Under the pieces are notes generated by a model. That model worked only from the letters and a program-made list of their open reading frames with translations. It searched no databases and was not told the origin of the DNA. Positions 256 through 61,390 of a stretch of DNA of 64,000 bases are shown here, piece after piece (the stretch's first letter is position 1; the number at the start of each line of letters is the position of its first letter). The translations under genes and the position numbers were made by a program. The DNA comes from an uncultured Nitrospiraceae bacterium (GTDB lineage Bacteria > Nitrospirota > Thermodesulfovibrionia > Thermodesulfovibrionales > Dissulfurispiraceae), in assembly GCA_963705105.1 (NCBI GenBank), contig CAVPIW010000007.1:224001-288000 (forward strand), read 5' to 3'.

Positions 256-446
256 CCCTGTCATCGCATACACACCCTCTGGAAAGGCGGGGTGCATGCG
301 CCGAAAACCTTGCTGCGGCGACACCTATAACGTCTCAGAAGAAGTCGTTTCAAGCCGATGGCCTGAAAAAGCCGGCCTTTTTCTGATACTCACACTGACA
401 CTGCTTTTCAGGGCGCTTCGCCCCGCCTTTTCACATGACTGCGCAG
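256..446 (+). mobile_element. MITE family A copy (left type 1 + short right module), diverged
   Basis: GGAAAGGCGGGGTGCATGCGCCGAAAACCTTGCTGCGGCGACAC ... CTCACACTGACACTGCTTTTCAGGGCGCTTCGCCCCGCCTTTTC. Confidence 0.85.
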
Positions 447-564
447 TCAAGTCAATGTATCACAGACATTTTCAGGATGTCAAAGCAAAGACCGTCAGGT
501 TTCTCCGGCCCGTCCTCTTCCCTGTGACCCCGACCAAGGTTTCCCAAGGTTACGATCGCCTAAT

Positions 565-891
565 CAGGAGTTGCGCGTCACGCGTTATCCTGTGGCTCCC
601 GCACAGCCATCGACATCGGCACGGAAAAAATACAAGACGGACGACAGACGATGGTCTTCCTATCCATAGCTTTCAGAGCCTTCTGGCCGAACTGGCAACC
701 CGATGCCGTAACCGATGTCGAGTACAATCGCAACCCGATACACTGACATTCGTTCAGCATACAGAATACAGTCCGTTACAGGAGAGAGCCATGCAACTAC
801 TGGACGTGTTGCCAGTATAAAAAACCTGACATGATGATTTCTATTTGCATATCATCAGGTTAGTTTGTCCCTCTGCTGGAACTTCGACCTA
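565..891 (+). pseudogene. IS1634-family transposase C-terminal remnant with probable right end
   Basis: YPVAPAQPSTSARKK / frameshift / TRRTTDDGLPIHSFQSLLAELATRCRN...SPLQERAMQLLDV resembles IS1634 C-termini; GGAACTTCGACCTA end-like motif at ~878-891. Confidence 0.75.
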
Positions 892-1193
892 AAAGTAGCG
901 GATAGTAGTCGCATTTAATTTTGGAACTGTGGAAAGATATTCCACATTATATGAGCATGTCGCGACGTAACCGACATGTTAACGCTCTTGTTATACCACC
1001 CAATAGGTCTAAAATGTTAATTTTGTCGTATAATTTGGGAACATGTTGCGACGTGTGCGTGCCAGGATCATGAATCATTGTTAAGATCGACCGGTCAGAA
1101 CGACACGAATACGCAGTCGGCGTTATGCCATAAGGGCAGCTCAGATTCGGGCATTATTATGATAAGCTTCTTCATGAATGCGCACCCAATTAT

Positions 1194-1755
1194 ATGCCGC
1201 TCTCTCTGAACGAGATGAAAGACCGCGCCCTTTCCTTTTCTCGCGAGTGGGAAGGAGAACGTACAGAACGCAGTGTGTCATGGATGAAGAGGGGTCAGCC
1301 CGCCGTCGCAACCTTGGTGCCCCCAGCCAAGCTTATTTGTTTTCGGCATGATATCGAGTAAAATGCACATGGCTTGGGTAAAATATGTCTGTGGTCGGAT
1401 CAAGAGTGACTATCGATATACAGGGCAAATCGTTTACAACAACTTCCCCTGGCCAGACAACCCAACGGACAGACAGCGCAAAGCTATAGAGCAGGCCGCA
1501 CAGGACGTGCTCGATGCCCGCTTTGCCCATCCGGATTCATCGCTTGCAGACCTGTACGATCCGATATCCATGCCGCCGGATTTACGGAAGGCTCATCAGG
1601 CCCTTGACAAGACTGTCGATGCCGCATATGGAAAGAAGTTCTTTGATTCGGATGCTGATCGGGTTGCATTCCTGTTCGAGCTATACAACCATTACACAAA
1701 TATGATGCCAGCTTCGGCAGAGAAAATAAAAAGAGGCAGAAGAAAGGAGACATGA
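1194..1755 (+). pseudogene. MmeI/YeeA-like type IIL restriction-modification gene with large internal deletion
   Basis: N-terminus MPLSLNEMKDRALSFSREWEGE (1194-) is joined out of frame to the C-terminal domain FGMISSKMHMAWVKYVCGRIKSDYRY...YNNFPWP...SLADLYDP...AHQALDKTVDAAYG. Confidence 0.85.
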
Positions 1756-1899
1756 TTACGGACAAGGAATAATCAGCGAATAGATGTACGGACTTCAATG
1801 GGGCGACTCTTAAGGTTTATGGCTTTATAATCCTAGGCGGCCCGTAGGGCATTCTTTTTAGACGGGTGGCAGACAAGTTATTATATAGAAGCGCAAGCC

Positions 1900-2256
1900 A
1901 TGAAACAGACGAACAAAGCGAAGAATAAAAACAAATATCTTTCTGCCGAGACGATTCTCGCTATGCTGAAGGAACACGCAGGCGACTTGAGGAAATGCTC
2001 TGTCATAAAGATAGGCCTTTTCGGGTCTTATGTTCGCGGTAGTCAGAAAGGGCGGAGTGATATAGACCTACTTGTGGAGTTTGACACATCGTCCTTCGGA
2101 GAGAATTTTGGAGGATATTTCGACACATACATGAGGCTTACTTTGCTGCTGGAAACTATACTCCACAAAAAGGTGGACCTCTTGACCAGCGAGATGATCA
2201 GCCCGCATATCAAGCCGTACGTCCTCAAAGAGGTGAAATATCTTGAAGGCATCTAA
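1900..2256 (+). CDS. Minimal nucleotidyltransferase (MNT/MntA-like antitoxin)
   Basis: GLFGSYVRG...SDIDLLVEF motif; overlaps downstream HEPN gene. Confidence 0.9.
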   Translation: MKQTNKAKNKNKYLSAETILAMLKEHAGDLRKCSVIKIGLFGSYVRGSQKGRSDIDLLVEFDTSSFGENFGGYFDTYMRLTLLLETILHKKVDLLTSEMISPHIKPYVLKEVKYLEGI

Positions 2257-2596
2257 ACCCTTTCTGATCCATATCGCCGAGGAGATACGTTATCTCGAGA
2301 AGAACTCCGCAAATCTCACCTATGACGATTTCATGCAAAACGAGACTTATAGGAGAAGTTTTGTTCGTGCTCTGGAAGTGATCGGAGAGGCTGCAAAAAA
2401 TCTTCCGCAGGGCTTCAGAAAGCGTTATCAGCAAGTCCCCTGGAAAGAAATTGCCGGCCTCAGAGATGTATTGATTCACCAATACTTCGGCATCAACTAC
2501 ATTTCATTATGGGACATTGTTAAGAACAAGATCCCGGTTCTCAGGGACCAAATAGCGGCTATCCTGAATGAATTGAATTCCGTTACAGAGAATTAA
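2243..2596 (+). CDS. HEPN/DUF86 (HepT-like) RNase toxin
   Basis: LEVIGEAAK...VPWKEIAGLRDVLIHQYFGI, RX4H motif. Confidence 0.9.
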   Translation: MKASKPFLIHIAEEIRYLEKNSANLTYDDFMQNETYRRSFVRALEVIGEAAKNLPQGFRKRYQQVPWKEIAGLRDVLIHQYFGINYISLWDIVKNKIPVLRDQIAAILNELNSVTEN

Positions 2597-2786
2597 TGCC
2601 TTCGGCGGGCGAGCCGCCATACAACAGCACATAGAGTAGCCCCATTAGATTCCCCTATACTTTGGAACAAGTTGCCCGCTTCCGCGGAAAAAAGATAAAA
2701 TATATAATTAACTGGCGGGGGGACAGTGTCGTTCCCGACGGCCACGATGCCCGCCGTGCGATAAAAAAAGCCTTGAAGGAGGATCT

Positions 2787-3257
2787 ATGAAAAGAATCAT
2801 TATCGTCGTCCTGATGCTGATATCCTTTGCCGCTGCAGCTTACGGCCAGGAGGCGCAGGAAAAGAAGGCACAGCCCGCTGCGCCGCAGGCGGGTCAGCAG
2901 CAGATGCAGATGTGCCCAAAGATGGGCGCAATGGGAGGACAGGGCATGCAGGGAGGTATGATGGGCATGCAGGGCATGAAAGGCATGAAGTGCCGGTGCA
3001 TGATGATGCAAGACATCGTCCCCATGATGAAGGAAGTCATGGGCATCCAGCAGAAGCTGATTGCGGGGGCGTCCGACACCGAGAAGAAGAAAATGTCCGA
3101 TGACCTTGCCCGGATGATCAGCCAGATCGACTCCATGAGCACCGGCATGGGCGGCATGGGGATGTGCGGCATGATGAACATGCAGCACGGCTCCCCGGCC
3201 GGCCAGGACGATCCTGCAAAGGCCGGCGAAAAAAAGATGCAAGAGCACAAACACTGA
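2787..3257 (+). CDS. Exported Met/Gly-rich protein, possibly Cu/Ag-binding
   Basis: Signal peptide, many MG/MM repeats, several Cys, C-terminal EHKH; GAAGGAGG RBS. Confidence 0.8.
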   Translation: MKRIIIVVLMLISFAAAAYGQEAQEKKAQPAAPQAGQQQMQMCPKMGAMGGQGMQGGMMGMQGMKGMKCRCMMMQDIVPMMKEVMGIQQKLIAGASDTEKKKMSDDLARMISQIDSMSTGMGGMGMCGMMNMQHGSPAGQDDPAKAGEKKMQEHKH

Positions 3258-3271
3258 GAATATCAGGCGAA

Positions 3272-3303
3272 GAGGGGGAAGGGGACATCTCCCCTTCCCC
3301 CTC
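3272..3303 (+). terminator. GC-rich hairpin after Met-rich gene
   Basis: GAGGGGGAAGGGGA-CATC-TCCCCTTCCCCCTC inverted repeat; no U-tract. Confidence 0.45.
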
Positions 3304-3380
3304 AACATCATACAGCAACACCCTGCCGTTTTGCGCAACGCTGCGGAGCGTCACGTCGCCGCACGCCGGAGGGCATCCCC

Positions 3381-5627
3381 GTGGAATCTTATGAATCCCT
3401 GATCCATGAACTGGCCGAATTAAAGGGCCTCGTGCCGGACTATTGGGACGTCTTCGGCACCAGGCACTTCACGACGATCGAGACGAAAAAGGCCGTCCTG
3501 AAGGCCATGGGGAAACGGATCGATTCGGAGGATGCGCTCCGGCAGGAGATAGAGGCGGAGCGGCGCAGGCCCTGGGACACCTTCATCGAGCCTGTGCTGG
3601 TCTTTACCTTTTCCGGTCAGCCCGTCACACTGTCGGTCTATGTCCCTGTCGCTGAGGGTCGCGAGCGGGAACTCGTCATCGCCTTCACTTTCCGGGACGA
3701 GCAGGACGGCCGTGACGATTTCAGCCTTTCGGGCGGCGACATCGTCGTGTCGGATCATCGATGGTTCAACGGTGTCAGGTATGCGAAGATCGGTGTGACG
3801 GACCGGAAAGTGAGGCCTCCGGGATATTACACGGCGGAGGTGTCCTGCAAGTCCCCTGCACTCGATCTTTCGGGGACGACGGCGCTGATCATCGCCCCTG
3901 AGCATTGTTACATCCCGCCTGAGCTCGAACAGGGCCGGTGTTGGGGGGTCTCTCTTAACCTGTACTCCCTGAAGTCCCGTCGCAACTGGGGCATCGGAGA
4001 TTTCTCGGACCTGATGGATGTCATTGGGGAATCCTCTGCGCAGGGATGCTCGTTCGTCGGGATCAATCCTCTCCACGCTATACCCAACAAGAGACCCTAC
4101 GGCGTGAGCCCCTATTCCCCCGTGAGCAGGCTCTACCGGAATTTCATCTACCTCGATGTGGAGAGGATCCCTGAAGTGCGCAAATCGAGACAGACCCAGG
4201 CGATCCTCCGGTCAAAGACGTTCAGAAAAAAAATCGAAGAGACGAGAGAATCGGACCTGATCGATTACAAGGGAATCGCCTCGCTCAAGCGGACCATCCT
4301 GAGACACGCCTTTGACGAGTTTTTCGCAGAAGAGCTCGGCGAAGGAGCGGTGAAAAGCCCCCGGGCTGCGCAGTTCCGCGATTATGTCGAGCGGGAGGGA
4401 GAGGTCCTCCAGTCCTATGCTCTCTTCATCACCCTCTGGGAATACATGAACAGCATCTGCAAAGTCTATGCATGGCAGGACTGGCACGAGGAGTACCGGG
4501 ACCCGTCCAGTGCCGCCGTCAGGGCCTTTGCATCGGAACAGCAGAAGGAAATCACCTTCCTCAAGTATCTGCAATGGCTGATTCATGAGCAATTGGAGCA
4601 GACGTGCGCTCATGGGCGGGACGCCGGCATGTCCGTCGGTCTCTATCAGGACCTCGCCGTCGGCTCCATCGGCGGGGGGAGCGATGCCTGGACATTCCAG
4701 ACCTGCATCGCCCGGGGCATCGAGATCGGCGCACCGCCGGACGAATTCAATCCCACGGGCCAGTGCTGGGGGTTCCCGCCGTCAGTGCCGGACAAACTGA
4801 AGGAGACGGGATACCGTCTTTTCATCGATACGATTGGCAAGAGCATGCAGCACAGCGGGGCCGTCAGGATCGACCATGCTCTCGGGCTCTTCAGGCTCTT
4901 CTGGGTCCCCGAGGGGATGACGGCGGCAGACGGCGCCTATGTGCGTCAGCCTGCCGACGACCTGCTGAAGATCATCGCCCTCGAAAGTGTCAGGAACAAA
5001 ACGATCGTCATCGCCGAAGACCTCGGAACGGTGGGGGAAGATGTCCGGGATATCCTGTCGCGGCACCGTATGCTCTCCTACCGTCTGCTGTACTTCGAAC
5101 GGAACTACCCTGATCCGTCCTTCACGCCGCCCGATCGATACCCAGATCTGGCCATTTGCGCCGTGACGACTCACGACCTGCCCACACTGCCGGGATACTG
5201 GACATGCCGCGATATCGTGGTGAAAAGACACCTCGGCATTTTGAGCGACAAGAGCACACAGCACTCCCTGGCCGAGCGGGAAAGGGACAAGGGACTGCTG
5301 CTCGTCACTCTCAGGGCACGGGGCCTCCTTCCCGGGGATTTCCCGGAAGATCACCGTCTCATCCCGGAAATGACGGACGAGCTCTGCCTCGGTGTTTACG
5401 AATACCTGGCGCAGACGCCCTGCAAGCTCACGGGCGTCAGCCTCGACGATATCGCAGGCGCCGTCGATCAGCAGAACATGCCGGGCACCGTGGTGACCTA
5501 TCCGAACTGGCTCCAGAAAATGCCCGTCCCTTTCGGCGAGCTCCTGGGAAGCCCGGTCTTCACTCAACTTGCGGACCGCTTTCGCCGGTCCGGGAGGTGC
5601 GTGAGCGCGGGAGAAGAGACGCGGTGA
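3381..5627 (+). CDS. malQ: 4-alpha-glucanotransferase (amylomaltase, GH77)
   Basis: GIGDFSDL, SPYSPVSR, DLAVG, GAPPD, RIDHALG, IAEDLG, TTHDLPT, QNMPGT. Confidence 0.96.
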   Translation: MESYESLIHELAELKGLVPDYWDVFGTRHFTTIETKKAVLKAMGKRIDSEDALRQEIEAERRRPWDTFIEPVLVFTFSGQPVTLSVYVPVAEGRERELVIAFTFRDEQDGRDDFSLSGGDIVVSDHRWFNGVRYAKIGVTDRKVRPPGYYTAEVSCKSPALDLSGTTALIIAPEHCYIPPELEQGRCWGVSLNLYSLKSRRNWGIGDFSDLMDVIGESSAQGCSFVGINPLHAIPNKRPYGVSPYSPVSRLYRNFIYLDVERIPEVRKSRQTQAILRSKTFRKKIEETRESDLIDYKGIASLKRTILRHAFDEFFAEELGEGAVKSPRAAQFRDYVEREGEVLQSYALFITLWEYMNSICKVYAWQDWHEEYRDPSSAAVRAFASEQQKEITFLKYLQWLIHEQLEQTCAHGRDAGMSVGLYQDLAVGSIGGGSDAWTFQTCIARGIEIGAPPDEFNPTGQCWGFPPSVPDKLKETGYRLFIDTIGKSMQHSGAVRIDHALGLFRLFWVPEGMTAADGAYVRQPADDLLKIIALESVRNKTIVIAEDLGTVGEDVRDILSRHRMLSYRLLYFERNYPDPSFTPPDRYPDLAICAVTTHDLPTLPGYWTCRDIVVKRHLGILSDKSTQHSLAERERDKGLLLVTLRARGLLPGDFPEDHRLIPEMTDELCLGVYEYLAQTPCKLTGVSLDDIAGAVDQQNMPGTVVTYPNWLQKMPVPFGELLGSPVFTQLADRFRRSGRCVSAGEETR

Positions 5628-8666: not shown

Positions 8667-8670
8667 CCTC

Positions 8671-15649: not shown

Positions 15650-15836
15650 CCGTATCGTTGCAATACACTCCCGGGAAAGGCAGGGCGTATGCGCCGAAAA
15701 CCTTGCTGCGGCGACACATTTCCGTTACGAAAGGGAATATTTTAAGCCGATGGTCGAAAAGTGAGCTTTTTAATGACACGCACACTGACACTGTTTTTCA
15801 GAGCGCTTCGCCCCGCCTTTCAATGCAACTGCAAGG
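15650..15836 (+). mobile_element. MITE family A copy (left type 1 + short right module)
   Basis: CCGTATCGTTGCAATACACTCCCGGGAAAGG ... GCGCTTCGCCCCGCCTTTCAATGCAACTGCAAGG. Confidence 0.9.
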
Positions 15837-15889: not shown

Positions 15890-16306
15890 ATGATTCGCTT
15901 TAAAAAGATTCCTGAAGACATTCACGAAAGAATCGGTCTCCTGACCGATATTTTCTCAGAAGATTCCAACATCGTCTTTGCCTATCTCTTCGGAGGATTG
16001 CTAAGAGATAAAGCGAGTCCCTTGAGCGATGTCGATGTGGCAATATATGTGAATAATGTGAAAAGTCTGGATTATCTCGCCTTATTCGGCAAGATTTCGG
16101 AAACCCTTTCCACCGATGAGATCGACCTGGTGGTCCTGAATTCGGCGCCCGTCAGCCTTGCCGGAAGGATCGTGCAGAAGAGAAAAGTCCTGATCGACAA
16201 GGACCCTTTTTTGAGACACAAATACGAATCGCGGATGCTGAGGGAATTTTTCGACTTTTCAGTAAAAGAACGGGAGATTCTTCACCGGAGGTACGGCATT
16301 GGTTGA
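15890..16306 (+). CDS. Minimal nucleotidyltransferase (MntA-like antitoxin)
   Basis: IVFAYLFGG...SDVDVAIY, IDLVVLNSAP. Confidence 0.88.
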   Translation: MIRFKKIPEDIHERIGLLTDIFSEDSNIVFAYLFGGLLRDKASPLSDVDVAIYVNNVKSLDYLALFGKISETLSTDEIDLVVLNSAPVSLAGRIVQKRKVLIDKDPFLRHKYESRMLREFFDFSVKEREILHRRYGIG

Positions 16307-16463
16307 CAGTCTCCTGGTGGGAAGAAAGCTTGGGCAGATCGATACTTATCTGAAGCAGATCGGGGATTACTCGAAGATTTCGCTGACACAATACAAGGAC
16401 GACTGGAAACAGTACAAGAAAAGGATCATTAAATACTTATCCGCGCAGGAAAGCAGCAAATAA
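16299..16463 (+). pseudogene. HepT/DUF86 toxin with in-frame internal deletion (54 aa)
   Basis: Manual translation MVDSLLVGRKLGQIDTYLKQIGDYSKISLTQYKDDWK|QYKKRIIKYLSAQESSK; N- and C-terminal helices present, RX4H core absent; overlaps MNT stop. Confidence 0.7.
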
Positions 16464-17281: not shown

Positions 17282-17378
17282 AAGACCTCCTTCCCGGCCG
17301 TCTTATCATCGCGAAGACCCGGCGCTTTCCGCCCCGCCTTCACAGGTGGTTTAGCTTTGTCGGGGTTCTCTTCTTTAA

Positions 17379-17590
17379 CTTTATCGTTGCAATACAGTCC
17401 CGGGAAAGGCGGGGCGTATGCGTCGAAAACCTTGCTGCGGCGACACCATAACTCTCACAGAAGACAACCTTTCAAACCAATGGTCGACCACACAAAGAGT
17501 GGACTCCTGAAAGACAAACCTGACGAGGAGTATCGTCGCCTTCAGCAAGGCTTTGAGGCACTTCGCCCCGCCTTTCTATGCACCTCAAGG
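17379..17590 (+). mobile_element. MITE family A copy (left type 1 + long right module)
   Basis: CTTTATCGTTGCAATAC... CACAAAGAGTGG... TCGCCTTCAGCAAGGCTTTGAGGCACTTCGCCCCGCCTTTCTATGCACCTCAAGG. Confidence 0.92.
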
Positions 17591-17690
17591 TAATTTAACT
17601 TGTATCACATAATTCTTTCACTATTCTTTCACTTGCCCATGAGCAATATTAATGAATTTCTATTAATAGCTTCAACGGACCGTCAGCGGC

Positions 17691-20779: not shown

Positions 20780-20884
20780 CACCCTTGTCCGAAATATTTT
20801 GCAGCGGGACCTTGAAAACGAGGATAGGGTGTGTTTTCTGAAGCATAATTCACGGTTGCCTTGCGCGAAAAGACGGGGCAAAAC
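20780..20884 (+). repeat. Family C repeat, copy 2 (runs into MITE A copy)
   Basis: Near-identical to 20478-20582. Confidence 0.85.
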
Positions 20885-21049
20885 GCTCTGAAAAACAGTG
20901 TCAGTGTCAGTGTGAGTGTCCGCAAAAGGTTAATTTTGTTTGATCGTTGGTCTGCAATGGTCTGCACGGGAAGGCAGAGGTTTCGCAGCACCGATGCTTT
21001 TCGGCGCATTCGCCCCGTCTTTCCTGAGATCTCATTGCGGTGATAAGGG
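20853..21049 (-). mobile_element. MITE family A copy (left type 2 + short right module)
   Basis: GAAAAGACGGGGCAAAACGCTCTGAAAAACAGTGTCAGTGTCAG ... GGTTTCGCAGCACC... CCCCGTCTTTCCTGAGATCTCATTGCGGTGATAAGG. Confidence 0.85.
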
Positions 21050-21976: not shown

Positions 21977-22171
21977 CCTTATCGTTGCAATACACTCCCG
22001 GGAAAGGCGGGGTGTATGCGCCGAAAACCTTGCTGCGGCGACACCTTAACCGTAACAAAAAGTATCTTTCAAGCCAATGGTCGAAATATGATCCTCTTTA
22101 CTCACACTCACACTGTCACTGTCACTGTTTTTTTAGAGCGCTTCGCCCCGCCTTTCTATGCAACCACAGGG
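21977..22171 (+). mobile_element. MITE family A copy (left type 1 + short right module), TSD TATA
   Basis: TATA[CCTTATCGTTGCAA...ATGCAACCACAGGG]TATA. Confidence 0.93.
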
Positions 22172-27647: not shown

Positions 27648-27699
27648 GATCATTGCTGTCCAGAAGCAGGACTTTGAGGCGCTTCGCCCTGCCTTTTCA

Positions 27700-27911
27700 C
27701 CTTATCGTTGCAATACACTCCCTGGAAAGGCGGGGTGTATGCGCCGAAAACCTTGCTGCGGCGACACCTGTATCGAAAGGGCAGACGAACTATACGCCAA
27801 TGGTCGATGACACAAAGAGTGGAATCCTGAAACACGAAACTGACGAGGCGTATCGTCGCCTTCAGCAAGGCTTTGAGGCGCTTCGCCCCGCCTTTTCATG
27901 CAACAGAAAGG
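27700..27911 (+). mobile_element. MITE family A copy (left type 1 + long right module), TSD TTCA, inserted into a right-end remnant of an older copy (27670-27699)
   Basis: GCGCTTCGCCCTGCCTT TTCA[CCTTATCG...CAACAGAAAGG]TTCA. Confidence 0.93.
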
Positions 27912-34824: not shown

Positions 34825-35113
34825 CCTCATCGTTGCAAAAACACTCCCAGGAAAGGCGGGGTGAATGCGCCGAAAACCTTGATGCGGTGACACCTTAACC
34901 TTCACAGAAGATAGCATGCAAGCCGATGGTCGATCACACATACAGTTGAATCCTGCAGGGGCCGTTCCCCGAACGGCCCGACATGAATGCCGCGCCCCAT
35001 ATGGATCATTTCAGGCAAAGGGCTGAACAAAATTAACCCTTTACGGACACTCACACTGACACTGACACTGTTTTTCAGAGTGCTTCGCTCCGCCTTTCAA
35101 TGTAGCTACCGGG
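34825..35113 (+). mobile_element. Composite MITE family A copy (289 bp), TSD TTCA, with internal REP-like hairpin
   Basis: TTCA[CCTCATCGTTGCAA...GGGCCGTTC-CCC-GAACGGCCC...CGCCTTTCAATGTAGCTACCGGG]TTCA. Confidence 0.9.
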
Positions 35114-38756: not shown

Positions 38757-38923
38757 CATTGTCGTTGCATAGAAAGGCGGGGCGAAGCGCTCTGAAAAAT
38801 AGTGACAGTGACAGTGTGAGTGTCAGCATATTCCCACCTTTCTTATTATGGTACGGTGTCGCCGCATCAAGGTTTTCAGCGCACACACCCCGCCTTTCCA
38901 GAGTCCCTATCGCAACGACAAGA
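38757..38923 (-). mobile_element. MITE family A copy (short type)
   Basis: GTTGCATAGAAAGGCGGGGCGAAGCGCTCTGAAAAATAGTGACAG ... GGTGTCGCCGCATCAAGGTTTTC...CGCAACGACAAG. Confidence 0.9.
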
Positions 38924-39672: not shown

Positions 39673-39884
39673 CCTTCCCGTTGCATGAAAAGGCGGGACA
39701 GAGTGCCTCAAAGCCTTGCTGACAGCGAGCATGATCATCTGAAATTGGACATTGGGGATTCCACCCTTTGTGTCATCAACCGTCATCCTGACATGATCCG
39801 TATGGAAAGGCAGAGGTTTCGCAGCACCAAGGCTTTTCGGCATCTTCGCCCCGCCTTTCCGGAGGCCCTATTGCAACGATAATG
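39673..39884 (-). mobile_element. MITE family A copy (left type 2 + long right module)
   Basis: CCTTCCCGTTGCATGAAAAGGCGGG ... CCCCGCCTTTCCGGAGGCCCTATTGCAACGATAATG. Confidence 0.9.
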
Positions 39885-42008: not shown

Positions 42009-42070
42009 CCTCATCGTTGCAATACACTTTCAGGAAGGGCGGGGTGTATGCGCCGAAAACCTTGATGCGG
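42009..42070 (+). mobile_element. MITE family A left-end fragment
   Basis: CCTCATCGTTGCAATACACTTTCAGGAAGGGCGGGGTGTATGCGCCGAAAACCTTGATGCGG. Confidence 0.85.
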
Positions 42071-42074: not shown

Positions 42075-42803
42075 TCAGGATGATGCGGGACCGTCGCCCT
42101 CTTCTCCTGTTTCCGGAGGGCCTGACTTTCCGGCGCTTCCTCCCAAAGTCTCTTCAAGCCTGATCGTCCTTTCGATCGCCCCGGAGAGATAGTCCCGGAA
42201 GCGTTCCGGGATGAGCCACTGGATGCCGAGCTTCTCGGCCCAGGCAATCAGTCCCTGGTCGGCGGTGACAAGGACCGCATCGAGCTCCCGGGCGAGGAGG
42301 AGAAGGTCCACATCCTCCCTGCTGTCGATGACTCCCTCCCTGAGGGCTTCCCTGTACTTTTTCCTCAGGTCCTGGATGATCTCGTCGGGCTTCCTCTGCT
42401 CGGCGGACCTGACGGCCTTCTCGGCGATGCGCAGCCCCTTGTTGACCCTGTCGCGCAGGTCCTCGATCAGCTCGTAGAGCACGAACCCGGGGATGGGTAT
42501 TTCATGCCTCCGCGGCGGCCGCTGGTGGAGAATGAGGAGGAGGTCGCCGGGTATGCGGCTCTTGTCGACGAAATTGAGGAGTTCGCTGAAGGTCGAGGGA
42601 GGCATATAAAATTCGAGCACGTGGATCTGCGACGCGAGAAAGAGAAAGGTCTCCAGGGCCTCCGTCGGCGTCGTTCCGAGGCTCATCCTGACGTCGGGAT
42701 TGACGAACAGGCTCGTGTCGAGGACCACCTTCCGGGGAGGAGGAAAGGGGGAATAGGTCCGCCGCGTATCGGGCGAAGTGTCTTCCCCGCCGGCTTCAGG
42801 CAT
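42075..42803 (-). CDS. HARP (homolog of Aquifex RNase P; RNA-free RNase P, PIN-like UPF0278)
   Basis: VLDTSLFVNP, FYMPPS, RVNKGLRIAE, LRKKYREALREGVIDSREDVDLLLLAREL, TADQG. Confidence 0.9.
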   Translation of the reverse strand: MPEAGGEDTSPDTRRTYSPFPPPRKVVLDTSLFVNPDVRMSLGTTPTEALETFLFLASQIHVLEFYMPPSTFSELLNFVDKSRIPGDLLLILHQRPPRRHEIPIPGFVLYELIEDLRDRVNKGLRIAEKAVRSAEQRKPDEIIQDLRKKYREALREGVIDSREDVDLLLLARELDAVLVTADQGLIAWAEKLGIQWLIPERFRDYLSGAIERTIRLEETLGGSAGKSGPPETGEEGDGPASS

Positions 42804-43665: not shown

Positions 43666-44087
43666 ATTTGTCGTTGCAATAAAAGGCGGGGCAAAGCGCC
43701 TCAGAGCCTCGCTGATAGCGAGCATGATCGTTTATTATGGTGTATCAGGAATTCACCCTTTGTGACATCGATCATGAGCCTAATGCCTTATCGTTGCAAT
43801 ACACTTCCGGGAAAGGCGGGGCGTATGCGCCGAAAACCTTGCTGCGGCGACACCATAACTCTCACGGAAGACAACCTTTCAAACCAATGGTCGACCACAC
43901 AAAGAGTGGAATCCTGAAAGACAAACCTGACGAGGCTTATCGTCGCCTTCAGCAAGGCTTGAGGCGTTTCGCCACGCCTTTCTATGCAAGGTAATAGTAT
44001 CTTTATGGGAAGGCAAAGGTCTCGCAGCACCGAGGCTTGTCGGCGCCTTCACCCCGCCTTTCCGGAGATCACATTGCATCGATAAGG
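43666..44087 (-). mobile_element. MITE family A (left type 2, long) host copy, TSD TAAT, interrupted by a second copy
   Basis: TAAT[ATTTGTCGTTGCAATAAAAGGCGGGG ... CATTGCATCGATAAGG]TAAT. Confidence 0.88.
43786..43991 (+). mobile_element. MITE family A (left type 1, long) nested in opposite orientation
   Basis: Nearly identical to 17379-17590; flanked by TAAT(G)/TAAT. Confidence 0.92.
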
Positions 44088-46060: not shown

Positions 46061-46271
46061 CCGTGCAGTTGTTTGAAAAGGCGGGGCGAAACGCCTCAAA
46101 GCCTTGCTGAAGGCGACGATACGCCTCATCAGCTTCGTGTTTCAGGATTCCACTCTTTGTGTCATCGACCATTGGCGTATAGTTCATCTCTCGTTTTGAT
46201 ACAGGTGTCGCCGCAGCAAGGTTTTCGGCGCATACACCCCGCCTTTCCGGAAAGCGTATGCAACGATAAGG
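46061..46271 (-). mobile_element. MITE family A (left type 1, long) between dnaK and dnaJ
   Basis: Close to reverse complement of 27700-27911. Confidence 0.92.
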
Positions 46272-46351
46272 TTATTATGTTACGGTGTCGCCGCATCAAG
46301 GTTTTCGGCGCATACGCCCCGCCTTTCCGGAGATCGTATGCGATTATAAAA
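46272..46351 (-). mobile_element. MITE family A left-end fragment abutting previous copy
   Basis: TTATTATGTTACGGTGTCGCCGCATCAAGGTTTTCGGCGCATACGCCCCGCCTTTCC, matches the 52799-52967 copy. Confidence 0.85.
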
Positions 46352-50168: not shown

Positions 50169-50195
50169 TTAGCACTCTCATGCCGAGAGTGCTAA
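50169..50195 (-). promoter_or_regulatory. CIRCE operator (perfect)
   Basis: TTAGCACTC-N9-GAGTGCTAA directly upstream of hrcA. Confidence 0.97.
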
Positions 50196-50237: not shown

Positions 50238-50680
50238 CGGAACAAGACCACGAACACCCGGACGGAAGGCTGATGTAGTGAAAAGCCTTTCCGCTAAGAT
50301 ACCCTATTCATCACCGGACTACACCTTATCGTTGCAATAGGACATCCGGAAAGGCGGGGCGAAGATGCCTCTAAGCCTTGGTGCTGAGAAACCTATGCCG
50401 TCCCATACGGATTATTTCAAGCGTATGGTTGATCGCATAAAAGATGAGATCCCGAATGTCCCATTTCAAATGATCATGCTCGCTATCAGCAAGGCGTTGA
50501 GGCACTTTGTCCCGACTTTTCATGCAACAGAAAGGTACACTTTGCCGTGTCCATTCATAACAGATGCCCGTCAGGCACCAGGCGCCGAACACCTTGAGAT
50601 GTTTCATCATCGCATTGGAAAGGCTCAGAACCATGTCTGCCTTCCCGGCGACAGCGTCGCGATATGCAAATTCAGAATGA
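50238..50680 (+). repeat. Family B dispersed repeat, copy 1 (interrupted by MITE A)
   Basis: Collinear with 59087-59302: GGCTGATGT.GTGAAAAGCCTTTCC..TAAGATACC ... CTTTGCCGTGTCCATT ... CATCATCGCATTGGAAAGGCT. Confidence 0.88.
50324..50535 (+). mobile_element. MITE family A (left type 2, long), TSD TACA
   Basis: GGAC TACA[CCTTATCGTTGCAA...TGCAACAGAAAGG]TACA CTTTGCC; empty site AGAC CACA CTTTGCC at ~59166-59180. Confidence 0.95.
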
Positions 50681-51575: not shown

Positions 51576-52709
51576 TTATATGAGAATCGTCTTCGGAATG
51601 GAAAACCCGTTGAACTCGGAAGCGTATGAGATGGTATAGGCCCCGCTCGACAGTATCAGGATGCGGTTACCGACCTCGGGCTCCGGCAAAAGCACATCCC
51701 GGTCGATCACGTCGAAGCTGTCACAGCTCGGCCCAGCGATCGTCCACCGGACCGGTTCGCTCCTGCTCCCCACGACATATTGGTATTTGATGCCCCCGAT
51801 GCTTTCCATGAGCCCGTTGAAGACGCCGACATCGATATACAGCCAGTTCTCATCGCCCCTCCGGGCTTTCCCGATGACCGTCGACACGAATATGCCGGCA
51901 TCACCGACGACGGACCTGCCGGGCTCGATGTGGATCTCCACATCATCGGGAAATTTCTGCGACAGCGACTTGCTGATCTTCTGCTCTATGTTTTCGACGG
52001 ATGCCACATTCTTGCGGTATCTGATCGGGTAGCCTCCCCCTATATTGAGGATCTTCAGCTTGAGACCCGTCCTTTCAACCGCTTCCCACACCTCTTTTGC
52101 CTTGTCGATTGCGGTGCTCCAGTTGTATACATTGTTGCATTGAGACCCCACGTGGAAGGTAATTCCCAGGGGGGCCAGTCCCCTGTCGCCCGCCGCGAGA
52201 AGGAGTTCCGCGGCCTCATCGGTCTCGACGCCGAACTTCTTGCTGAGCGGCCATTCACTCCCCTCATTCGGAACGGAGAGCCGCACATAGACGCCTGCGC
52301 CGGGTGCGTAACGCGCCAGCTTCTCGACTTCGGCGGCAGAGTCGAAAGCATAGGATTTCATGCCGTACGCGACAGCCTGCTCGAGAAACCGGGGACTCTT
52401 GACGGGGTTGCTCGTAATGATCCTCTCCGGTGCGACGCCGAGGGAGGCGAGGATGTCGAGCTCACCCTCAGAGGCGATTTCGAATCCGACGCCGAGGGTA
52501 TTGAGGAAGTCCACAATGGCGGCATCGGGATGGGCCTTGACAGCGTAAAAGACCTTTGAGTTCCTGATCTTCTTCCCGATGAGCAACACCTTCCCCCGGA
52601 CAATGTCCCTGTCGATGAGGAGATAGGGAGGCGCCAGATCACTCGATGCGATGTAGTCGAGCACCTTATGCCACGTCGTTTTACTGATCGATTCGGGTGT
52701 AATATGCAT
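51576..52709 (-). CDS. Fold-type III PLP ornithine/lysine decarboxylase
   Basis: FYAVKA, KKFG, FHVGSQ, NIGGG, EPGR, GPSCDSFD, GAY. Confidence 0.92.
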   Translation of the reverse strand: MHITPESISKTTWHKVLDYIASSDLAPPYLLIDRDIVRGKVLLIGKKIRNSKVFYAVKAHPDAAIVDFLNTLGVGFEIASEGELDILASLGVAPERIITSNPVKSPRFLEQAVAYGMKSYAFDSAAEVEKLARYAPGAGVYVRLSVPNEGSEWPLSKKFGVETDEAAELLLAAGDRGLAPLGITFHVGSQCNNVYNWSTAIDKAKEVWEAVERTGLKLKILNIGGGYPIRYRKNVASVENIEQKISKSLSQKFPDDVEIHIEPGRSVVGDAGIFVSTVIGKARRGDENWLYIDVGVFNGLMESIGGIKYQYVVGSRSEPVRWTIAGPSCDSFDVIDRDVLLPEPEVGNRILILSSGAYTISYASEFNGFSIPKTILI

Positions 52710-52798
52710 ACGCTGCTCCGTTCAGACCCCTGTTTAGGGGCAAATTGGATAATAAAGGCTTTTCACTCACACTCACACTCACACTGTTTGAGGTTTAA

Positions 52799-52967
52799 CC
52801 CTGTAGTTGTATAAAAAGGCGGGGCGAAGCGCTCTGAAAAATAGTGACAGTGACAGTGTGAGTGTCAGCATATGCCCACCTTAATCTTATTATGTTACGG
52901 TGTCGCCGCATCAAGGTTTTCGGCGCATACGCCCCGCCTTTCCCGGAAGTGTATTGCAACGACAAGG
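52799..52967 (-). mobile_element. MITE family A (short type), TSD TTAA
   Basis: TTAA[CCCTGTAGTTGTATAAAAAGGCGGGG...GTATTGCAACGACAAGG]TTAA. Confidence 0.93.
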
Positions 52968-52991
52968 TTAATTATATATCAACGGGAGGCG

Positions 52992-53067
52992 CTCGTGCCC
53001 AAAGCGGCTTACAGCGTGACATTGAAAACGAGGTTGAGGCATGGTTTCTGAAGCAAAATTCACGGGC
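52992..53067 (+). repeat. Diverged family C repeat
   Basis: CAGCGTGACATTGAAAACGAGG...GGTTTCTGAAGCAAAATTCACGG similar to 20780-20855. Confidence 0.7.
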
Positions 53068-53138
53068 ACCTATCCTCGTGTCAGATCATCCTGGACATCA
53101 GGGAACGGGCGGGGGTCCGTAAAAGGCGGGACTGTGGC

Positions 53139-53178
53139 GTACCGGCGCCGCCGGACGACAAGCCTGCGGCGCCGGTAC
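53139..53178 (-). terminator. Perfect 13-bp hairpin downstream of NosL-like gene
   Basis: GTACCGGCGCCGC ... GCGGCGCCGGTAC. Confidence 0.55.
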
Positions 53179-53191
53179 AATTTGCCGATGA

Positions 53192-53710
53192 TTAGTGATG
53201 CTTGTGCTCGGAACCTTTCATTTTCATCATCTTTCTCTTCTCACGAATCATCTTCGAGTCTTCATACATATCCTCATAGGCAGCCTTGATCGCCTCGTCG
53301 AATGAGGAGATCTTTCCCCCGTTGTCCTTGACGAACTTCTCGGCGTCCTCTTTCTTCGCGAAGGCCCACTTGGCCCTTTTCGTCATCACGCCCATCTTGT
53401 TACCGCCGACGACCCAGACGGCCTTCTCGGCGTCGACGAGATCCTTCGTGTTGAAATCCGCGACCTTGATCTCCTTCGGATTCTTGTCGATGTTGAGGGC
53501 CAGATCAACTGCCGCGCAATGAAGACTGCAGAGGCCGACTTTCATGCCGTCATCATATTCGATGTACATACGGCTGTGCCCGAACTTTTCCCTGTCCATG
53601 CCGCAATACTTGCAGGACTGGATGCCTTCGACAGCCGCCTGTGCGACGGCGATGCCCAGGCAGAAGACCATCAGGAGAGCCGAAATCCCGAAAATTATCC
53701 TTTTATTCAT
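53192..53710 (-). CDS. NosL-family exported metal-binding protein
   Basis: Signal peptide, CKYCGM, CSLHC, VDAEKAVWVVG, GVM...AF; AAGGAGG RBS. Confidence 0.85.
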   Translation of the reverse strand: MNKRIIFGISALLMVFCLGIAVAQAAVEGIQSCKYCGMDREKFGHSRMYIEYDDGMKVGLCSLHCAAVDLALNIDKNPKEIKVADFNTKDLVDAEKAVWVVGGNKMGVMTKRAKWAFAKKEDAEKFVKDNGGKISSFDEAIKAAYEDMYEDSKMIREKRKMMKMKGSEHKHH

Positions 53711-55264: not shown

Positions 55265-55275
55265 CCCCCGGCTGC

Positions 55276-55668
55276 CTATATCTTTCGCTTGACGACCCTC
55301 ATGGTCCTCAGCGTGGTGCTTTTTTCCTGAAGCCCCTGAAGCCACCGGACGGTAAGGACGATCTCGTAGAGACGGACCTGGAGTCCTTCCGTCCGTTCTG
55401 CAAGGACTTCGGCAATGGAGACGTCCATCCTGTATCCCATTTCGTCGGTCTCGCTCCACGTCCTCTCCTCGATCTCCGACTCATCGAGGTCCAGGATCTC
55501 CCGCATCCACGACTCCGCCCTGACGACGCCGTTGACCTGTCCTTCCGACATCGAGAGGGCGCGCAGGTTGGCCGAGAAGAGCTGCATGATCACTGTCACG
55601 GCGATTCCGAGGAGTGACAGGGCGACGAGCACCTCGAGGAGGGTGAACCCGCTGTCCCGTGTTTTCAC
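55276..55668 (-). CDS. gspI: T2SS minor pseudopilin GspI-like
   Basis: GFTLLEVLVAL. Confidence 0.8.
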   Translation of the reverse strand: MKTRDSGFTLLEVLVALSLLGIAVTVIMQLFSANLRALSMSEGQVNGVVRAESWMREILDLDESEIEERTWSETDEMGYRMDVSIAEVLAERTEGLQVRLYEIVLTVRWLQGLQEKSTTLRTMRVVKRKI

Positions 55669-56126: not shown

Positions 56127-56127
56127 G

Positions 56128-57321: not shown

Positions 57322-58859
57322 TAAAACTCCTGGGTCACCCTGAGGACCTCGCTCAATGTCGTCACGCCCTGCCTGATCTTTTGTGCGCCGTCCTCGAGGA
57401 GCGTTCTCATCCCGCTTGCCCTGGCGGCCTGCCTGATCTCGTTCGAGTCTGCGTTGGTGAGGATCATTTTCCTCATGGCGTCTTCGACGACAAGGAGTTC
57501 ATAGATGCCCAGCCTTCCGAAATACCCGGTATGGGCGCAGGTCTCACAGCCCCTGCCGCGATGAACAGGCACGTCCTTCCCGATCCCAAGGGAAAGCAGC
57601 TCCTCCCTCCCCGGCGGGTCCGGATCCACTTCCTTGCAGGCAGGGTCGATGACCCTCACGAGTCTCTGCGCCAGAATGCCCCTGACGGTAGATGAGAGAA
57701 GGAAGTTCTCGACGCCCATGTCGAGGAGCCTCGTGATCGCGCTCGGCGCGTCGTTCGTATGAAGGGTCGAAAAGACGAGATGACCGGTCAGGGCGGACTG
57801 GATGGCGATCTCGGCCGTCTCGAGGTCCCTGATCTCGCCGATCATGATGATGTCCGGGTCCTGCCTGACGATGTGCCTGAGCGTATTCGCAAAGTTCAGA
57901 CCGATCTGGGGCTTCACCTGGATCTGGTTGACTCCCTTGAGCTGGTACTCGACGGGATCTTCAACGGTGATTATTTTTCTGTCCGGCGAGTTGATTTTGT
58001 CGAGGGCGCCGTAAAGGGTCGTCGTCTTGCCGCTCCCTGTCGGGCCGGTGACGAGGATGATGCCGTTCGGTTTGTTGATGAGGGTATTGAAAGAGGTCAG
58101 CGTGTCGGGCGGAAACCCGAGCAGCTCGAGGTCGATGACGATCCCTTCCTTCTTGAGGATACGCATGACCACGCTCTCTCCGAACAGGACGGGTATCGTG
58201 GAGACCCTGAGGTCGATCTCGCGCTCGGAGACTTTGAGCCTGATGCGGCCGTCCTGGGGGAGCCTCCGTTCGGCGATGTTCAGTTTCGCCATGAGCTTGA
58301 TCCTCGACACAATCGCCGCCTGGAGCTTCTTCGGTATGGGCTCGATATCGTGGAGCACGCCGTCTATGCGGTACCTGACCTTCAGTTCGTCCTCAAAGGG
58401 CTCTATGTGAATGTCACTGGCGCGACTCTCGACGGCACGGGATATGATGAGGTTGACGAGCTTGATGATCGGCGCCTCGGCGGCGAGATCCTTCAGGTGC
58501 CCGATGTCCTCTTCCTCTTCGCGGAGGAACTCGATGCCCCCGCCGATATCCTCGATGATCCTGTTCATGTTTTGGGAGTCCTGGCCGTAGAACCGCGCAA
58601 GGTATTCGTTCACTGCATGGGGATCGACAGCGAATACGACGACGTCGGCGGAGAGGGCGACCTGCAGGGCGTCGATCGTTTCCTTGTCCTCCGGATCGGC
58701 CATGGCGACCTTGAGGACATTGTTCTTGAATTCAATGGGGACGACGCGGTTTTCCTGGATAAACCGCGACGAGACACCGTTGAGAACAAGGGGGACTTTG
58801 GGGAGGTCTTCGCCCTTGATAAAGGGGATTTCCCCGACGGAAGCTTCTCTGTCAGCCAT
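57321..58859 (-). CDS. gspE: T2SS ATPase
   Basis: ASDIHIEP, GPTGSGKTTT, TVEDPVEY, RQDPDIIMIGEIRD, STLHTND. Confidence 0.94.
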   Translation of the reverse strand: MADREASVGEIPFIKGEDLPKVPLVLNGVSSRFIQENRVVPIEFKNNVLKVAMADPEDKETIDALQVALSADVVVFAVDPHAVNEYLARFYGQDSQNMNRIIEDIGGGIEFLREEEEDIGHLKDLAAEAPIIKLVNLIISRAVESRASDIHIEPFEDELKVRYRIDGVLHDIEPIPKKLQAAIVSRIKLMAKLNIAERRLPQDGRIRLKVSEREIDLRVSTIPVLFGESVVMRILKKEGIVIDLELLGFPPDTLTSFNTLINKPNGIILVTGPTGSGKTTTLYGALDKINSPDRKIITVEDPVEYQLKGVNQIQVKPQIGLNFANTLRHIVRQDPDIIMIGEIRDLETAEIAIQSALTGHLVFSTLHTNDAPSAITRLLDMGVENFLLSSTVRGILAQRLVRVIDPACKEVDPDPPGREELLSLGIGKDVPVHRGRGCETCAHTGYFGRLGIYELLVVEDAMRKMILTNADSNEIRQAARASGMRTLLEDGAQKIRQGVTTLSEVLRVTQEF

Positions 58860-58982
58860 TTTTCATTATACCACAAGAACAGGACCGCGACCCTTCATCC
58901 CGGCTCCCTCCGGTCTTCTGCATGAGCATCCTCATCACTCTCCCTGAAATGTGGTGACGCTGCCTGCTGCGAAAAAGATTAA

Positions 58983-59368
58983 CCTTTCGTTGCAATACAC
59001 TCCCGGGAAAGGCGGGGCTGGGGTGAATGCGCCGAAAACGAGCGACGCCGTGACAGTCATTAAGTCATTAGCCGGCAGTCAAGCGTCGGAACAAGGCCAC
59101 AAGCATTGGGACGGGGAGGCTGATGTGGTGAAAAGCCTTTCCTCTAAGATACCTTATTCATCACCAGACCACACTTTGCCGTGTCCATTGATACGAAAAG
59201 CCCGTCAGGCAACAGGCGCTGAACACCTTGAAATGTCTCATCATCGCATTGGAAAGGCTTTGAACCATATCTGCCTCCCCGGCGAAACAGCATTTAGAAT
59301 GAAATGATCATCGTCGCCTTCAGCAAGGCTTTGAGGCGCTTTGCCCCCCTTTTCATACAGCTCAAAGG
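58983..59368 (+). mobile_element. MITE family A ends enclosing a family B repeat
   Basis: TTAA[CCTTTCGTTGCAATACACTCCCGGG... (family B) ...TCGTCGCCTTCAGCAAGGCTTTGAGGCGC...CTCAAAGG]TTAC. Confidence 0.8.
59087..59302 (+). repeat. Family B dispersed repeat, copy 2 (uninterrupted)
   Basis: Collinear with 50238-50680 minus the MITE A insert. Confidence 0.88.
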
Positions 59369-59442
59369 TTACCTCTGCACGACGGTCGAGAAATCGAAAG
59401 AGGTGTACCTTTCACTGACACTCACACTGATACTGGGGTATA

Positions 59443-60399
59443 ATGACAGATATGTCCGGGTCTTCTTATTCCGTCAGCATCGTCATCCCCACGCTCAATG
59501 CCGAGCGGCACATCAGGAACCTCCTCGATTCGCTGCTGTCGCAGACCGTCCGTTCCGAGATCCTCGTCATCGACTCGTCGTCCGGGGACAGGACCGTTGA
59601 AATCGCGCAGTCCCTGCGGATCCGGACGGAGCTGATCGGGCGGGACGTCTTCGATCACGGCGGAACGAGAAACCTCGGAGTCGCCATGACATCGGGAGAC
59701 ATTGTCGTCTTCCTCACGCAGGACGTCGTTCCGGCCGGCAGGGACCTCATCGGGAATCTCGTTCAACCCTTTCAGGACGAGCGGATTGCCCTGAGTTACG
59801 GCCGGCAGGTAGCAAAAGCGGACGCCACACCGGTCGAGCGGTTCACGCGCTCCTTCAACTACCCCGGCGAGTCCCGTGTCAAGGGAAGAGCGGATGTGGA
59901 GAAACTCGGGATCAAGACGTTCTACTGTTCAAACGCCTGTTCAGCCGTACGGCGCCGCGCCTTCGACGAAGTCGGAGGGTTTCCGTCGCCCATCATCATG
60001 AATGAGGACATGATGATGGCGGCGAAACTCATAACCAGGGGGTACAGCATAGCCTATCAGTCATCGGCGGCGGTGTTTCATTCCCACAATTACTCGCTCC
60101 TGGAGCAGTGCCGCCGCTATTTCGACATCGGCGTTTCGCTGGACAGGAACAGGTGGGTCCTCGGGTATGCCAGGCCCGAGGGCGAGGGTCTCCGGTTCAT
60201 GCGCGAACAGGCCCGGTCCCTCCTTGGAACAGGTCAATGGTACTGGATACCATATGGCATCGCTGAAGGCATTGTAAAACTGCTCGGTTATCGATTAGGA
60301 TTGAATGAACGCCGGATACCACGCTGGATGACAATGGGCCTGACCATGCACCGCCATTATTGGAAAAACGGCGAGAGCCCGGAGCGCCCGGCCCGGTGA
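59443..60399 (+). CDS. GT2 glycosyltransferase (rhamnosyltransferase-like)
   Basis: VIPTLNA, IDSSSGD, FDHGGTRN, FLTQD, HSHNY. Confidence 0.9.
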   Translation: MTDMSGSSYSVSIVIPTLNAERHIRNLLDSLLSQTVRSEILVIDSSSGDRTVEIAQSLRIRTELIGRDVFDHGGTRNLGVAMTSGDIVVFLTQDVVPAGRDLIGNLVQPFQDERIALSYGRQVAKADATPVERFTRSFNYPGESRVKGRADVEKLGIKTFYCSNACSAVRRRAFDEVGGFPSPIIMNEDMMMAAKLITRGYSIAYQSSAAVFHSHNYSLLEQCRRYFDIGVSLDRNRWVLGYARPEGEGLRFMREQARSLLGTGQWYWIPYGIAEGIVKLLGYRLGLNERRIPRWMTMGLTMHRHYWKNGESPERPAR

Positions 60400-60444
60400 A
60401 AGGAATCGTGCGGAGGATCGTCCAAAAAGTGACTGAGGAGAGTC

Positions 60445-60990
60445 ATGCCGTTTAAATTTACGGAACTCGGACCTCCCGGTGTCATGCTCGTCGAGATCGT
60501 CGCCTTCGGCGACGACAGGGGTTTTTTCGCCGAGACCTACAAGATGAGCGATTTCGTGAAGGCGGGCATCGACCGGCCCTTTGTCCAGGACAACTATTCA
60601 CGGTCGGTAAAGGGCGTCCTCCGCGGGCTGCACTACCAGCTCGATCCTCAGGCGCAGGGAAAGCTCGTCAGGGCCGTCGAGGGTGAGATCTTCGATGTCG
60701 CCGTCGACATCCGGAAGGACTCACCGACATTCAGGAAGTGGATCGGCGTCGTCCTGTCCGGCCCGATGAAGAACATGCTCTGGATACCGGAGGGGTTCGC
60801 CCACGGCTTTGTCGTCCTGTCGGATCAGGCCGACGTCATGTACAAGACGACGGCCGAGTATGCCCCGTCGCTCGACCGGGGGATCATCTGGAATGACGCC
60901 GACATCGGGATCGAATGGCCGCTCGTCGATCCGACCCTCTCCCCCAAAGACGCAAAACTCCCCCCGCTATCAGAAGCCGAGATTTTCTGA
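60445..60990 (+). CDS. rfbC: dTDP-4-dehydrorhamnose 3,5-epimerase
   Basis: DDRGFF, GVLRGLHYQ, QGKLVR, GFAHGF. Confidence 0.97.
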   Translation: MPFKFTELGPPGVMLVEIVAFGDDRGFFAETYKMSDFVKAGIDRPFVQDNYSRSVKGVLRGLHYQLDPQAQGKLVRAVEGEIFDVAVDIRKDSPTFRKWIGVVLSGPMKNMLWIPEGFAHGFVVLSDQADVMYKTTAEYAPSLDRGIIWNDADIGIEWPLVDPTLSPKDAKLPPLSEAEIF

Positions 60991-61006
60991 CCGGCACCAT
61001 ACTTTA

Positions 61007-61219
61007 CCTTAACGTTGCAATGGGACCTCCGGAAAGGCGGAGCGTATGCGCCGACAAGCCTCGGTGCTGCGAAACCTTTGCCTTCCCATACAGATCATGT
61101 CAGACAGATGGTGGATGACACGAACGATGAATTCCCGATACACCAATAATAAACGATCATTCTCGCTATCAGCGAGGCATTGAGGCGCGTCGTCCCGCCT
61201 TTTCATTGCAACTGGAAGG
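61007..61219 (+). mobile_element. MITE family A (left type 2, long), TSD TTTA
   Basis: TTTA[CCTTAACGTTGCAA...TTGCAACTGGAAGG]TTTA. Confidence 0.93.
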
Positions 61220-61223
61220 TTTA

Positions 61224-61390
61224 CCTTATCGTTGCAACACACTCCCAGGAAAGGCGGGGTGTATGCGCCGAAAACCTTGATGCGGCGACACCGTAGCATA
61301 ATAAGAAAGGTGGGCATATGCTGACACTCACACTGTCACTGTCACTATTTTTCAGAGCGCTTCGCCCCGCCTTTCCAACCAGCCGAAAGG
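61224..61390 (+). mobile_element. MITE family A (short type), tandem with previous copy
   Basis: TTTA[CCTTATCGTTGCAAC...CCAACCAGCCGAAAGG]TCTA. Confidence 0.92.

Follow-up and report, generated by a model that had tools for sequence, protein, structure and literature searches.

A 64,000-nucleotide stretch of contig CAVPIW010000007.1 (positions 224,001 to 288,000; hereafter the window) from an uncultured Nitrospiraceae bacterium raises a simple question: what is the short, gene-less repeat that recurs between its genes, and what spread it? An earlier note, made from the sequence alone, had listed 19 starts of this repeat and read it as a non-autonomous element. We find that it is a true MITE (a miniature transposable element with inverted-repeat ends), mobile and sharp-ended, with a fixed target duplication and empty sites. 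Comparison of its tips points to a clade of IS1380 insertion sequences (ISs), typified by the protein P0001, and we put the probability at roughly 0.87 that this clade mobilised the MITE in trans in past waves, the helper having since been lost or left unassembled.

The genome that holds the window (G000; 4.23 Mb in 19 contigs, 99% complete) was catalogued in two ways. A profile trained on nine window copies, run against the window and the whole genome, gave 796 non-redundant matches, 273 of them near full length and 135 with both ends exact; the locally shuffled genome gave none, which excludes chance. The second catalogue, built by pairing left and right ends, holds 475 paired elements and 293 unpaired ends, bearing out the earlier expectation of hundreds of copies per genome. 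The total footprint is 144,751 bp at 707 separate loci, or 3.4% of the genome, and 329 of the 475 paired elements are 190-225 bp long. With 16 loci, the window lies above the average load, which is 10.8 per 64 kb and varies from 0 to 19. At least six subfamilies can be told apart. A simple gene caller predicts 3,542 genes and a coding share of 77%. Of the 796 matches, 752 are clear of these genes, 34 extend into one by no more than 30 bp, 10 overlap one partially and none is contained in a gene. A promoter scan of one MITE copy found none.

Mobility is recorded in the flanks. An exact 4-bp target duplication borders 87 of the 135 complete copies, compared with a mean of 8.2 and a maximum of 16 over 1000 permutations; duplications of 3 bp and 5 bp border one and three of the 135. 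The duplicated target has the consensus T-W-W-A (TTAA itself in 14 of 87), and its retention follows youth, being seen in 27 of the 33 youngest and 18 of the 38 oldest copies. Target duplications of TA or of 8-9 bp were rejected by the same test. When empty junctions were rebuilt for 163 host copies with a duplication, 31 found a match; after removal of 8 that match themselves or a neighbour and of 9 with few copies, we counted 14, which sit in other repeats having 16-141 empty copies and include the window copy at 50324-50535. At the orthologous level, contigs of four public runs were compared with window 52300-53500, and in two of these (X3 and X8, from two studies) contigs pass from 52794 straight to 52968, with 173 bases missing and 4 letters shared at the joint. 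Since 173 bases equal the 169-bp element plus one 4-bp duplication, this is a clean empty site for the copy at 52799-52967. One X8 contig is also without 50262-50651, a core with a nested copy. A 212-bp skip at 43781-43994 was excluded as an orthologous empty site because paralogous host copies produce the same joint. Short, multi-copy and bounded by terminal inverted repeats, with a fixed duplication, empty sites and no transposase, the element has the traits of a type II MITE. The proposal of a non-autonomous, mobile element therefore stands; an absence of empty sites in relatives, which had been named as an argument against mobility, is not what is seen. Among its targets in this genome are a separate REP-like palindromic repeat family of at least 26-32 copies (flanks C5:46400, C14:45934, C12:9057 and C5:60781) and other small repeats (flanks of C6:1013682 and C7:304266).

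What supplied the transposase? IS1380 elements have CC...GG ends and make target duplications of 4-5 bp, and we took the CC...GG ends and 4-bp duplication of the MITE to point to this family. Among 50 IS1380-containing loci from the bacterial family of the host, one (L168 in genome G055, encoding P0001) terminates 23 bp past the P0001 stop codon, in a tip nearly the same as that of the MITE. P0001 has matches in 17 of 390 genomes of the class (E<=1e-30; 13 at >=60% identity, 4 distant) and in 7 of 401 genomes of a phylum sample. Tips were compared by pattern matches and inspection, and the clade was separated by BLAST identities; every member of the close clade with visible ends has the CC-N-box tip seen in the MITE. 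Complete elements of the clade measure ~1.5 kb, apart from one of 1.65 kb; of the 13, 9 are flanked by an exact duplication of 4 bp, in most cases T-W-W-A. P0001 and three relatives all exceed the NCBIfam NF033539 (IS1380) cut-off (227-234 bits vs 180), and the clade is a large one: 5,452 of 8,000 scored proteins are related to P0001 at E<=1e-100, their names, where given, being only 'IS1380 family transposase'. The terminal stretch shared by the MITE and the ISs of the clade is 13-16 bp, and its asymmetry is kept in the host copies: the left-drawn end resembles IS right ends and the other end IS left ends. The two ends of the MITE are not equivalent, contrary to the mirror-image termini first described. 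The remaining IS1380s of the host's bacterial family share 19-26% identity with P0001, and their ends differ.

In G284, a genome of another family, an intact P0001-clade IS accompanies 411 end motifs (0 in the control) and MITEs of 213-218 bp with the same core. Of the 10 loci fetched there, 4 have MITE copies with the one-base change in the box that is private to this IS. In G602, IS fragments have unusual tips, and all three fetched core-bearing MITEs carry the same tips as these fragments. An autonomous partner in the same genome is therefore present in G284 and, as fragments, in G602, and was not found in the host.

Several observations weigh against a P0001-clade helper. In the host genome, tblastn for the clade gave a best E of 0.07 and a six-frame hmmsearch was empty; PF13701 had no match, and NF033539 matched only IS1634 open reading frames (ORFs). 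The clade was not found in the 160-contig assembly of G054, whose MITE copies look like a recent burst, and the intact IS1380 of that genome (L167) bears another tip type. Across the family, the clade occurs in 1 of 68 genomes and the MITE in at least 23 of 68, and G256, G491 and G055 hold the IS yet few additional MITE ends. Six further genomes contain the ~170-bp inner core of the MITE without a recognisable tip, and, beyond the tips, L215 is the only IS that resembles a MITE arm.

No autonomous copy turned up in the host among end pairs 0.3-4.5 kb apart, with relaxed end motifs or at the ends of repeats >500 bp, and no end pair there encloses a transposase ORF; the earlier note was right that none is carried, and its suggestion to look for one bracketed by such ends came up empty. 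The assembly resolves ~17 near-identical copies of a 1.37-kb IS (426-aa ORF), five IS1634 copies and other ISs, which makes loss of a multi-copy helper through assembly collapse less likely. No relatives of P0001 were found in viral contigs. Unpaired ends in G054, G057 and G080, considered as candidate ISs, proved to be decayed or interrupted MITEs. In the course of events we propose, a DDE transposase of the P0001 clade would bind both MITE tips and insert the element into AT-rich intergenic sites with a 4-bp target duplication. Several copying waves would have produced the subfamilies, and the helper would then have left the lineage, or be missing from the assembly, with copies now mostly decaying.

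Alternatively, a transposase resident in the host genome (IS1634, IS4, IS1182 or other) might cross-mobilise the MITE. The genome has 15 DDE_Tnp_1 matches, several of them multi-copy and intact, and identity to the nearest neighbour among the 135 exact copies reaches 99.5% (median 94%), implying fairly recent movement. However, no two of these copies are identical, unlike the resident ISs, none of the resident transposases is bounded by MITE tips, and the multi-copy IS1634 at L012 makes a 5-bp duplication. We consider such a resident source very unlikely and favour the P0001 clade.

Within the window, the copies and fragments are as follows, with the means of detection in brackets for most.

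257..446, + strand: old 190-bp copy with decayed tips, its duplication gone (profile and end pairing)
15650..15836, + strand: 187-bp copy of a short subfamily with an ACACTG-type repeat interior (profile and end pairing)
17379..17591, + strand: main-subfamily copy of ~212 bp (profile and end pairing)
20853..21048, - strand: 196-bp copy (profile and end pairing)
21977..22171, + strand: 195-bp copy with the 4-bp duplication TATA (end pairing)
27649..27699, + strand: right-arm fragment of an older copy, adjoining the 27700 element (profile and end pairing)
27700..27911, + strand: 212-bp reference copy, duplication TTCA, predicted fold-back z = -7.4
34825..35113, + strand: 289-bp copy with additional interior, duplication TTCA (end pairing)
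38757..38923, - strand: short 167-bp copy (profile and end pairing)
39673..39884, - strand: second-subfamily copy, 212 bp (profile and end pairing)
42009..42070, + strand: left end alone, a fragment (profile and end pairing)
43666..44087, - strand: 422-bp span, an older copy (duplication TAAT) broken by the nested copy 43786..43997 (end pairing)
43786..43997, + strand: ~212-bp copy nested in 43666..44087 (profile and end pairing)
46061..46271, - strand: 211-bp copy in the dnaK/dnaJ gap (profile and end pairing)
46278..46344, - strand: left end alone, a fragment (profile and end pairing)
50264..50646, + strand: end-less ~168-bp superfamily core, split by the 50324 element, upstream of hrcA
50324..50535, + strand: 212-bp copy, duplication TACA, with 105 paralogous empty sites elsewhere in the host genome
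52799..52967, - strand: 169-bp copy, duplication TTAA, precisely missing in contigs of runs X3 and X8
58982..59368, + strand: 387-bp 'Russian doll' copy, outer arms enclosing the end-less core 59113-59280
61007..61219, + strand: 213-bp copy, duplication TTTA (end pairing)
61224..61390, + strand: 167-bp copy in tandem behind the 61007 copy (profile and end pairing)

All 19 starts of the original list are recovered by the profile and are real, comprising 17 paired elements and two single-end fragments (42009 and 46272). The length of ~170-210 bp given there does not hold for three longer ones (289, 387 and 422 bp). Copy 43786 is nested in 43666-44087, and 50324 lies inside the older end-less core 50264-50646. 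The scrap near 27670 is a real right-end fragment, and those near 17322 and 32968 went undetected by the profile at E<=0.01. The terminal motif proposed for the family is exact at only 7 left and 6 right window ends, with 15 and 12 matching when one mismatch is allowed. The copies are intergenic by gene calls and occur in both orientations, as had been described, save for overlaps of a few bases with longest-start ORF predictions. The 4-bp duplication, the IS1380 helper clade and its absence from the assembly, the order-wide spread and the second tip type were all absent from that account.

The 'Russian doll' copy belongs to a 340-400-bp class in the host genome, formed by paired elements around an end-less core; 47 of the 96 end-less full cores lie inside paired elements, 46 of these in the same orientation. 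In this class, the window copy included, the inner core is flanked by linkers of 6-10 bp short tandem repeats, whose number differs from copy to copy.

Inside the tips, each arm consists of a ~15-bp stem and a conserved motif. Among 14 representatives, stems pair at 79% with their own partner and at 53-54% between genomes, and across 20 sequences 16 of 23 predicted pairs show two-sided change; the covariation score is reached by 0 of 500 shuffles and by none of the slid controls. As the same alignment served to derive the structure, and its sequences are related to one another, the result demonstrates matched arms, not RNA function. Conversion between the two arms would be the simplest way to maintain such matching, and the flipped order of tips between genomes agrees with it.

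The covarying arms might instead reflect a structured RNA or DNA signal selected by the host, such as a stability element, terminator or protein-binding site, with mobility being incidental. A strong predicted fold (z -7.4), a constant length of ~200-215 bp and an excess of G.T over A.C in cross-genome representatives (26 to 5) would suit such a signal. However, the 26:5 count is not independent, the representatives being related, and in the host copies decay after insertion proceeds without strand bias (G.T 174, A.C 165). Orientation in gaps between co-oriented genes shows no preference (240 copies with the genes, 285 against), and neither strand folds consistently better, the drawn strand being the better RNA in only 49 of 135 copies. 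As arm-to-arm conversion also yields covariation and MITE sites are polymorphic between strains, we regard host selection for a signal as highly improbable. The weakest contender, a REP/REPIN-like palindrome spread by an HUH nuclease (RAYT/TnpA) and not by a DDE enzyme, would account for the long inverted arms, the intergenic sites and the tip-less cores in six genomes, but HUH elements are not known to make a target duplication or such an empty site, and the exact 4-bp duplication, the precise empty site and the tips common to IS1380 elements largely refute it for tipped copies, in which the lack of a target duplication that would mark such palindromes is not found.

If IS1380 transposases did move the MITE, as we favour, its core may have served more than one of them. 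In G043, G032 and G441, the same core lies under different tips that resemble the ends of L167: all 14 loci match at 15-18 of 20 bases, compared with 13-15 for shuffles and 10-12 for nine control core loci. Some of these copies show 5-7-bp duplications, and the L167 transposase is 19% identical to P0001. We think at least one tip switch between IS1380 clades rather probable, plausibly through end misrecognition; the cores of the three genomes being alike, one switch and then transfer would suffice. The left end of L215 resembles the short MITE arm (52 nt, E 0.002); the core may have descended from an IS or have been captured by one.

The inner ~170-bp core would be older than the tips and have travelled with two or more IS1380 clades, its re-tipping likely brought about by loose end recognition, while arm exchange would keep the arms matched and the predicted fold-back would help to bring the ends together. 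That the core aids transposition is conceivable from these comparisons, although we lean against it. Similarly tentative is a broader picture, in which an ancient, Thermodesulfovibrionia-wide, enzyme-less fold-back cassette of ~170 bp swaps its 14-20-bp tips for those of passing IS1380s, and selection keeps a covarying hairpin and an internal motif. If true, the core would be a portable transposition enhancer for any tip pair, and nature would have supplied a map of specificity for the IS1380/piggyBac-related transposases, which are poorly understood.

Relatives were scored with a sequence-only model on 34 (family) or 15 (order) candidates per genome, so the counts are lower bounds. The MITE is present in at least 22 of 67 other family genomes (E<=1e-3) and in at least 20 of 150 sampled order genomes (E<=1e-4), spanning at least 7 of 13 families; the inner core is found in seven families of the order and in an eighth family. 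Fetched copies are 200-220 bp long with the tips known from the host and 4-bp duplications, and those of G054 are nearly identical among themselves. A pattern scan of genome contigs gave 51 loci with a transposase in none, and a metagenome scan gave one locus, a MITE. Two matches in viral contigs were chance, and blastn against a plasmid collection gave only 22-32-nt matches at E 0.6, which is chance level. Records that carry the MITE are labelled Dissulfurispiraceae or Nitrospirae, except for three labelled delta proteobacterium or Chloroflexota (L120, L135 and L140), which may reflect either mislabelling or transfer beyond Nitrospirota. G284 (L261-L266) has many internally deleted forms of 48-90 bp, with tips and stem only and with duplications present, and similar forms of 46-80 bp occur in the host; these define minimal ends. 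At two loci of G054 (L145 and L146), a MITE is interrupted at the same position by a distinct element of ~75 bp, which has inverted repeats and CC...GG ends and may represent a third tip of IS1380 type. At L269 (G263 C45), two 192-bp MITEs have tips like those of the resident IS (L215) and an unrelated interior, which means that one helper clade gave rise to MITEs independently.

Rfam gave no match in the window at gathering score and none in the loci of 8 relatives at E<=0.1. The open literature, with subscription papers, supplements and ISfinder outside its scope, yielded neither a MITE family derived from IS1380 nor any MITE of this bacterial group, in line with the earlier failure to recognise a named family. 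As a MITE superfamily dependent on IS1380, with a tip-swapping core, it is apparently undescribed. Type II MITEs, in the open text of one review (PMC10969869), are <500 bp long, with terminal inverted repeats, age-faded direct repeats, a predicted stem-loop and AT-rich intergenic targets. The present element shares all those traits, its likeness to the parent IS being limited to the tips; that text has 0 mentions of IS1380 or Nitrospir-. It differs from type II MITEs in general in that the tips vary across the order, over an inner arm of ~60 bp and a core that are both conserved. In its copy number and its intergenic location it is comparable to what is given in the accessible portions of the sources for ERIC (711 copies in Photorhabdus; PMC10969869), Correia/CREE (up to 2% of the genome; PMC9330008) and MaeMITEa-h (517 copies, 1.8%; PMC2779907), and 3.4% from one superfamily exceeds the percentages quoted there for CREE and MaeMITEa-h. 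The ends and duplication differ from all three (CREE mostly TA), and Rfam has no match. MITEAba12, according to the open part of PMC6382973, is likewise family-wide, matches its parent ISs by tips alone and has no orientation preference; it differs in its 113-bp length, 9-bp duplication, <=22 copies and little divergence, with no tip exchange described there.

The helper resembles other IS1380 members (IS1247, ISEcp1, ISPme1) in its ~1.5-kb length, single ORF and NCBIfam assignment. It differs in sequence: the best of the plasmid-borne IS1380s, ISSsu5/ISEcp1 types among them, share ~24% identity with the P0001 clade. The duplication of IS1247 is listed as 5 bp (PMC3281130), in contrast to 4 bp here, and the MITE itself has no gene. 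Section 7.3 of PMC9330008 describes end misrecognition by ISEcp1 and ISPme1, and TMo modules; according to one review, the transposition pathway of IS1380 is not known. The accessible text of PMC10813416 gives piggyBac a TTAA-type 4-bp target and treats IS1380 as its prokaryotic outgroup. However, piggyBac is eukaryotic, and the MITE target is the looser T-W-W-A.

New bacterial MITE families are routine in general. Here, an IS1380 target preference (4 bp, T-W-W-A) and the minimal ends can be read directly from hundreds of natural insertions, and 3.4% of a genome from one superfamily whose helper was not found in the assembly is a clear case of boom and orphaning. That one core occurs beneath the tips of two IS1380 clades with 19% identity makes it testable how non-autonomous elements survive the loss of their helpers. 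In practical terms, the repeats fragment metagenome assemblies of these bacteria and serve as strain markers.

Some neighbours of the window copies deserve mention. Upstream of hrcA-grpE-dnaK-dnaJ lies a perfect inverted repeat (50169-50195, 9-N9-9), which we take to be a CIRCE-type motif, and the core-plus-MITE complex missing in one X8 contig starts ~70 bp further upstream. A protein encoded at 42075-42803 (-) scores above the cut-off for TIGR03875 'RNA ligase partner', presumably the HARP family of protein-only RNase P, with a MITE fragment just downstream. At 15890-16463 (+), an MntA-type antitoxin (NF047752, above cut-off) is followed by a short ORF, and a MITE copy lies directly upstream.

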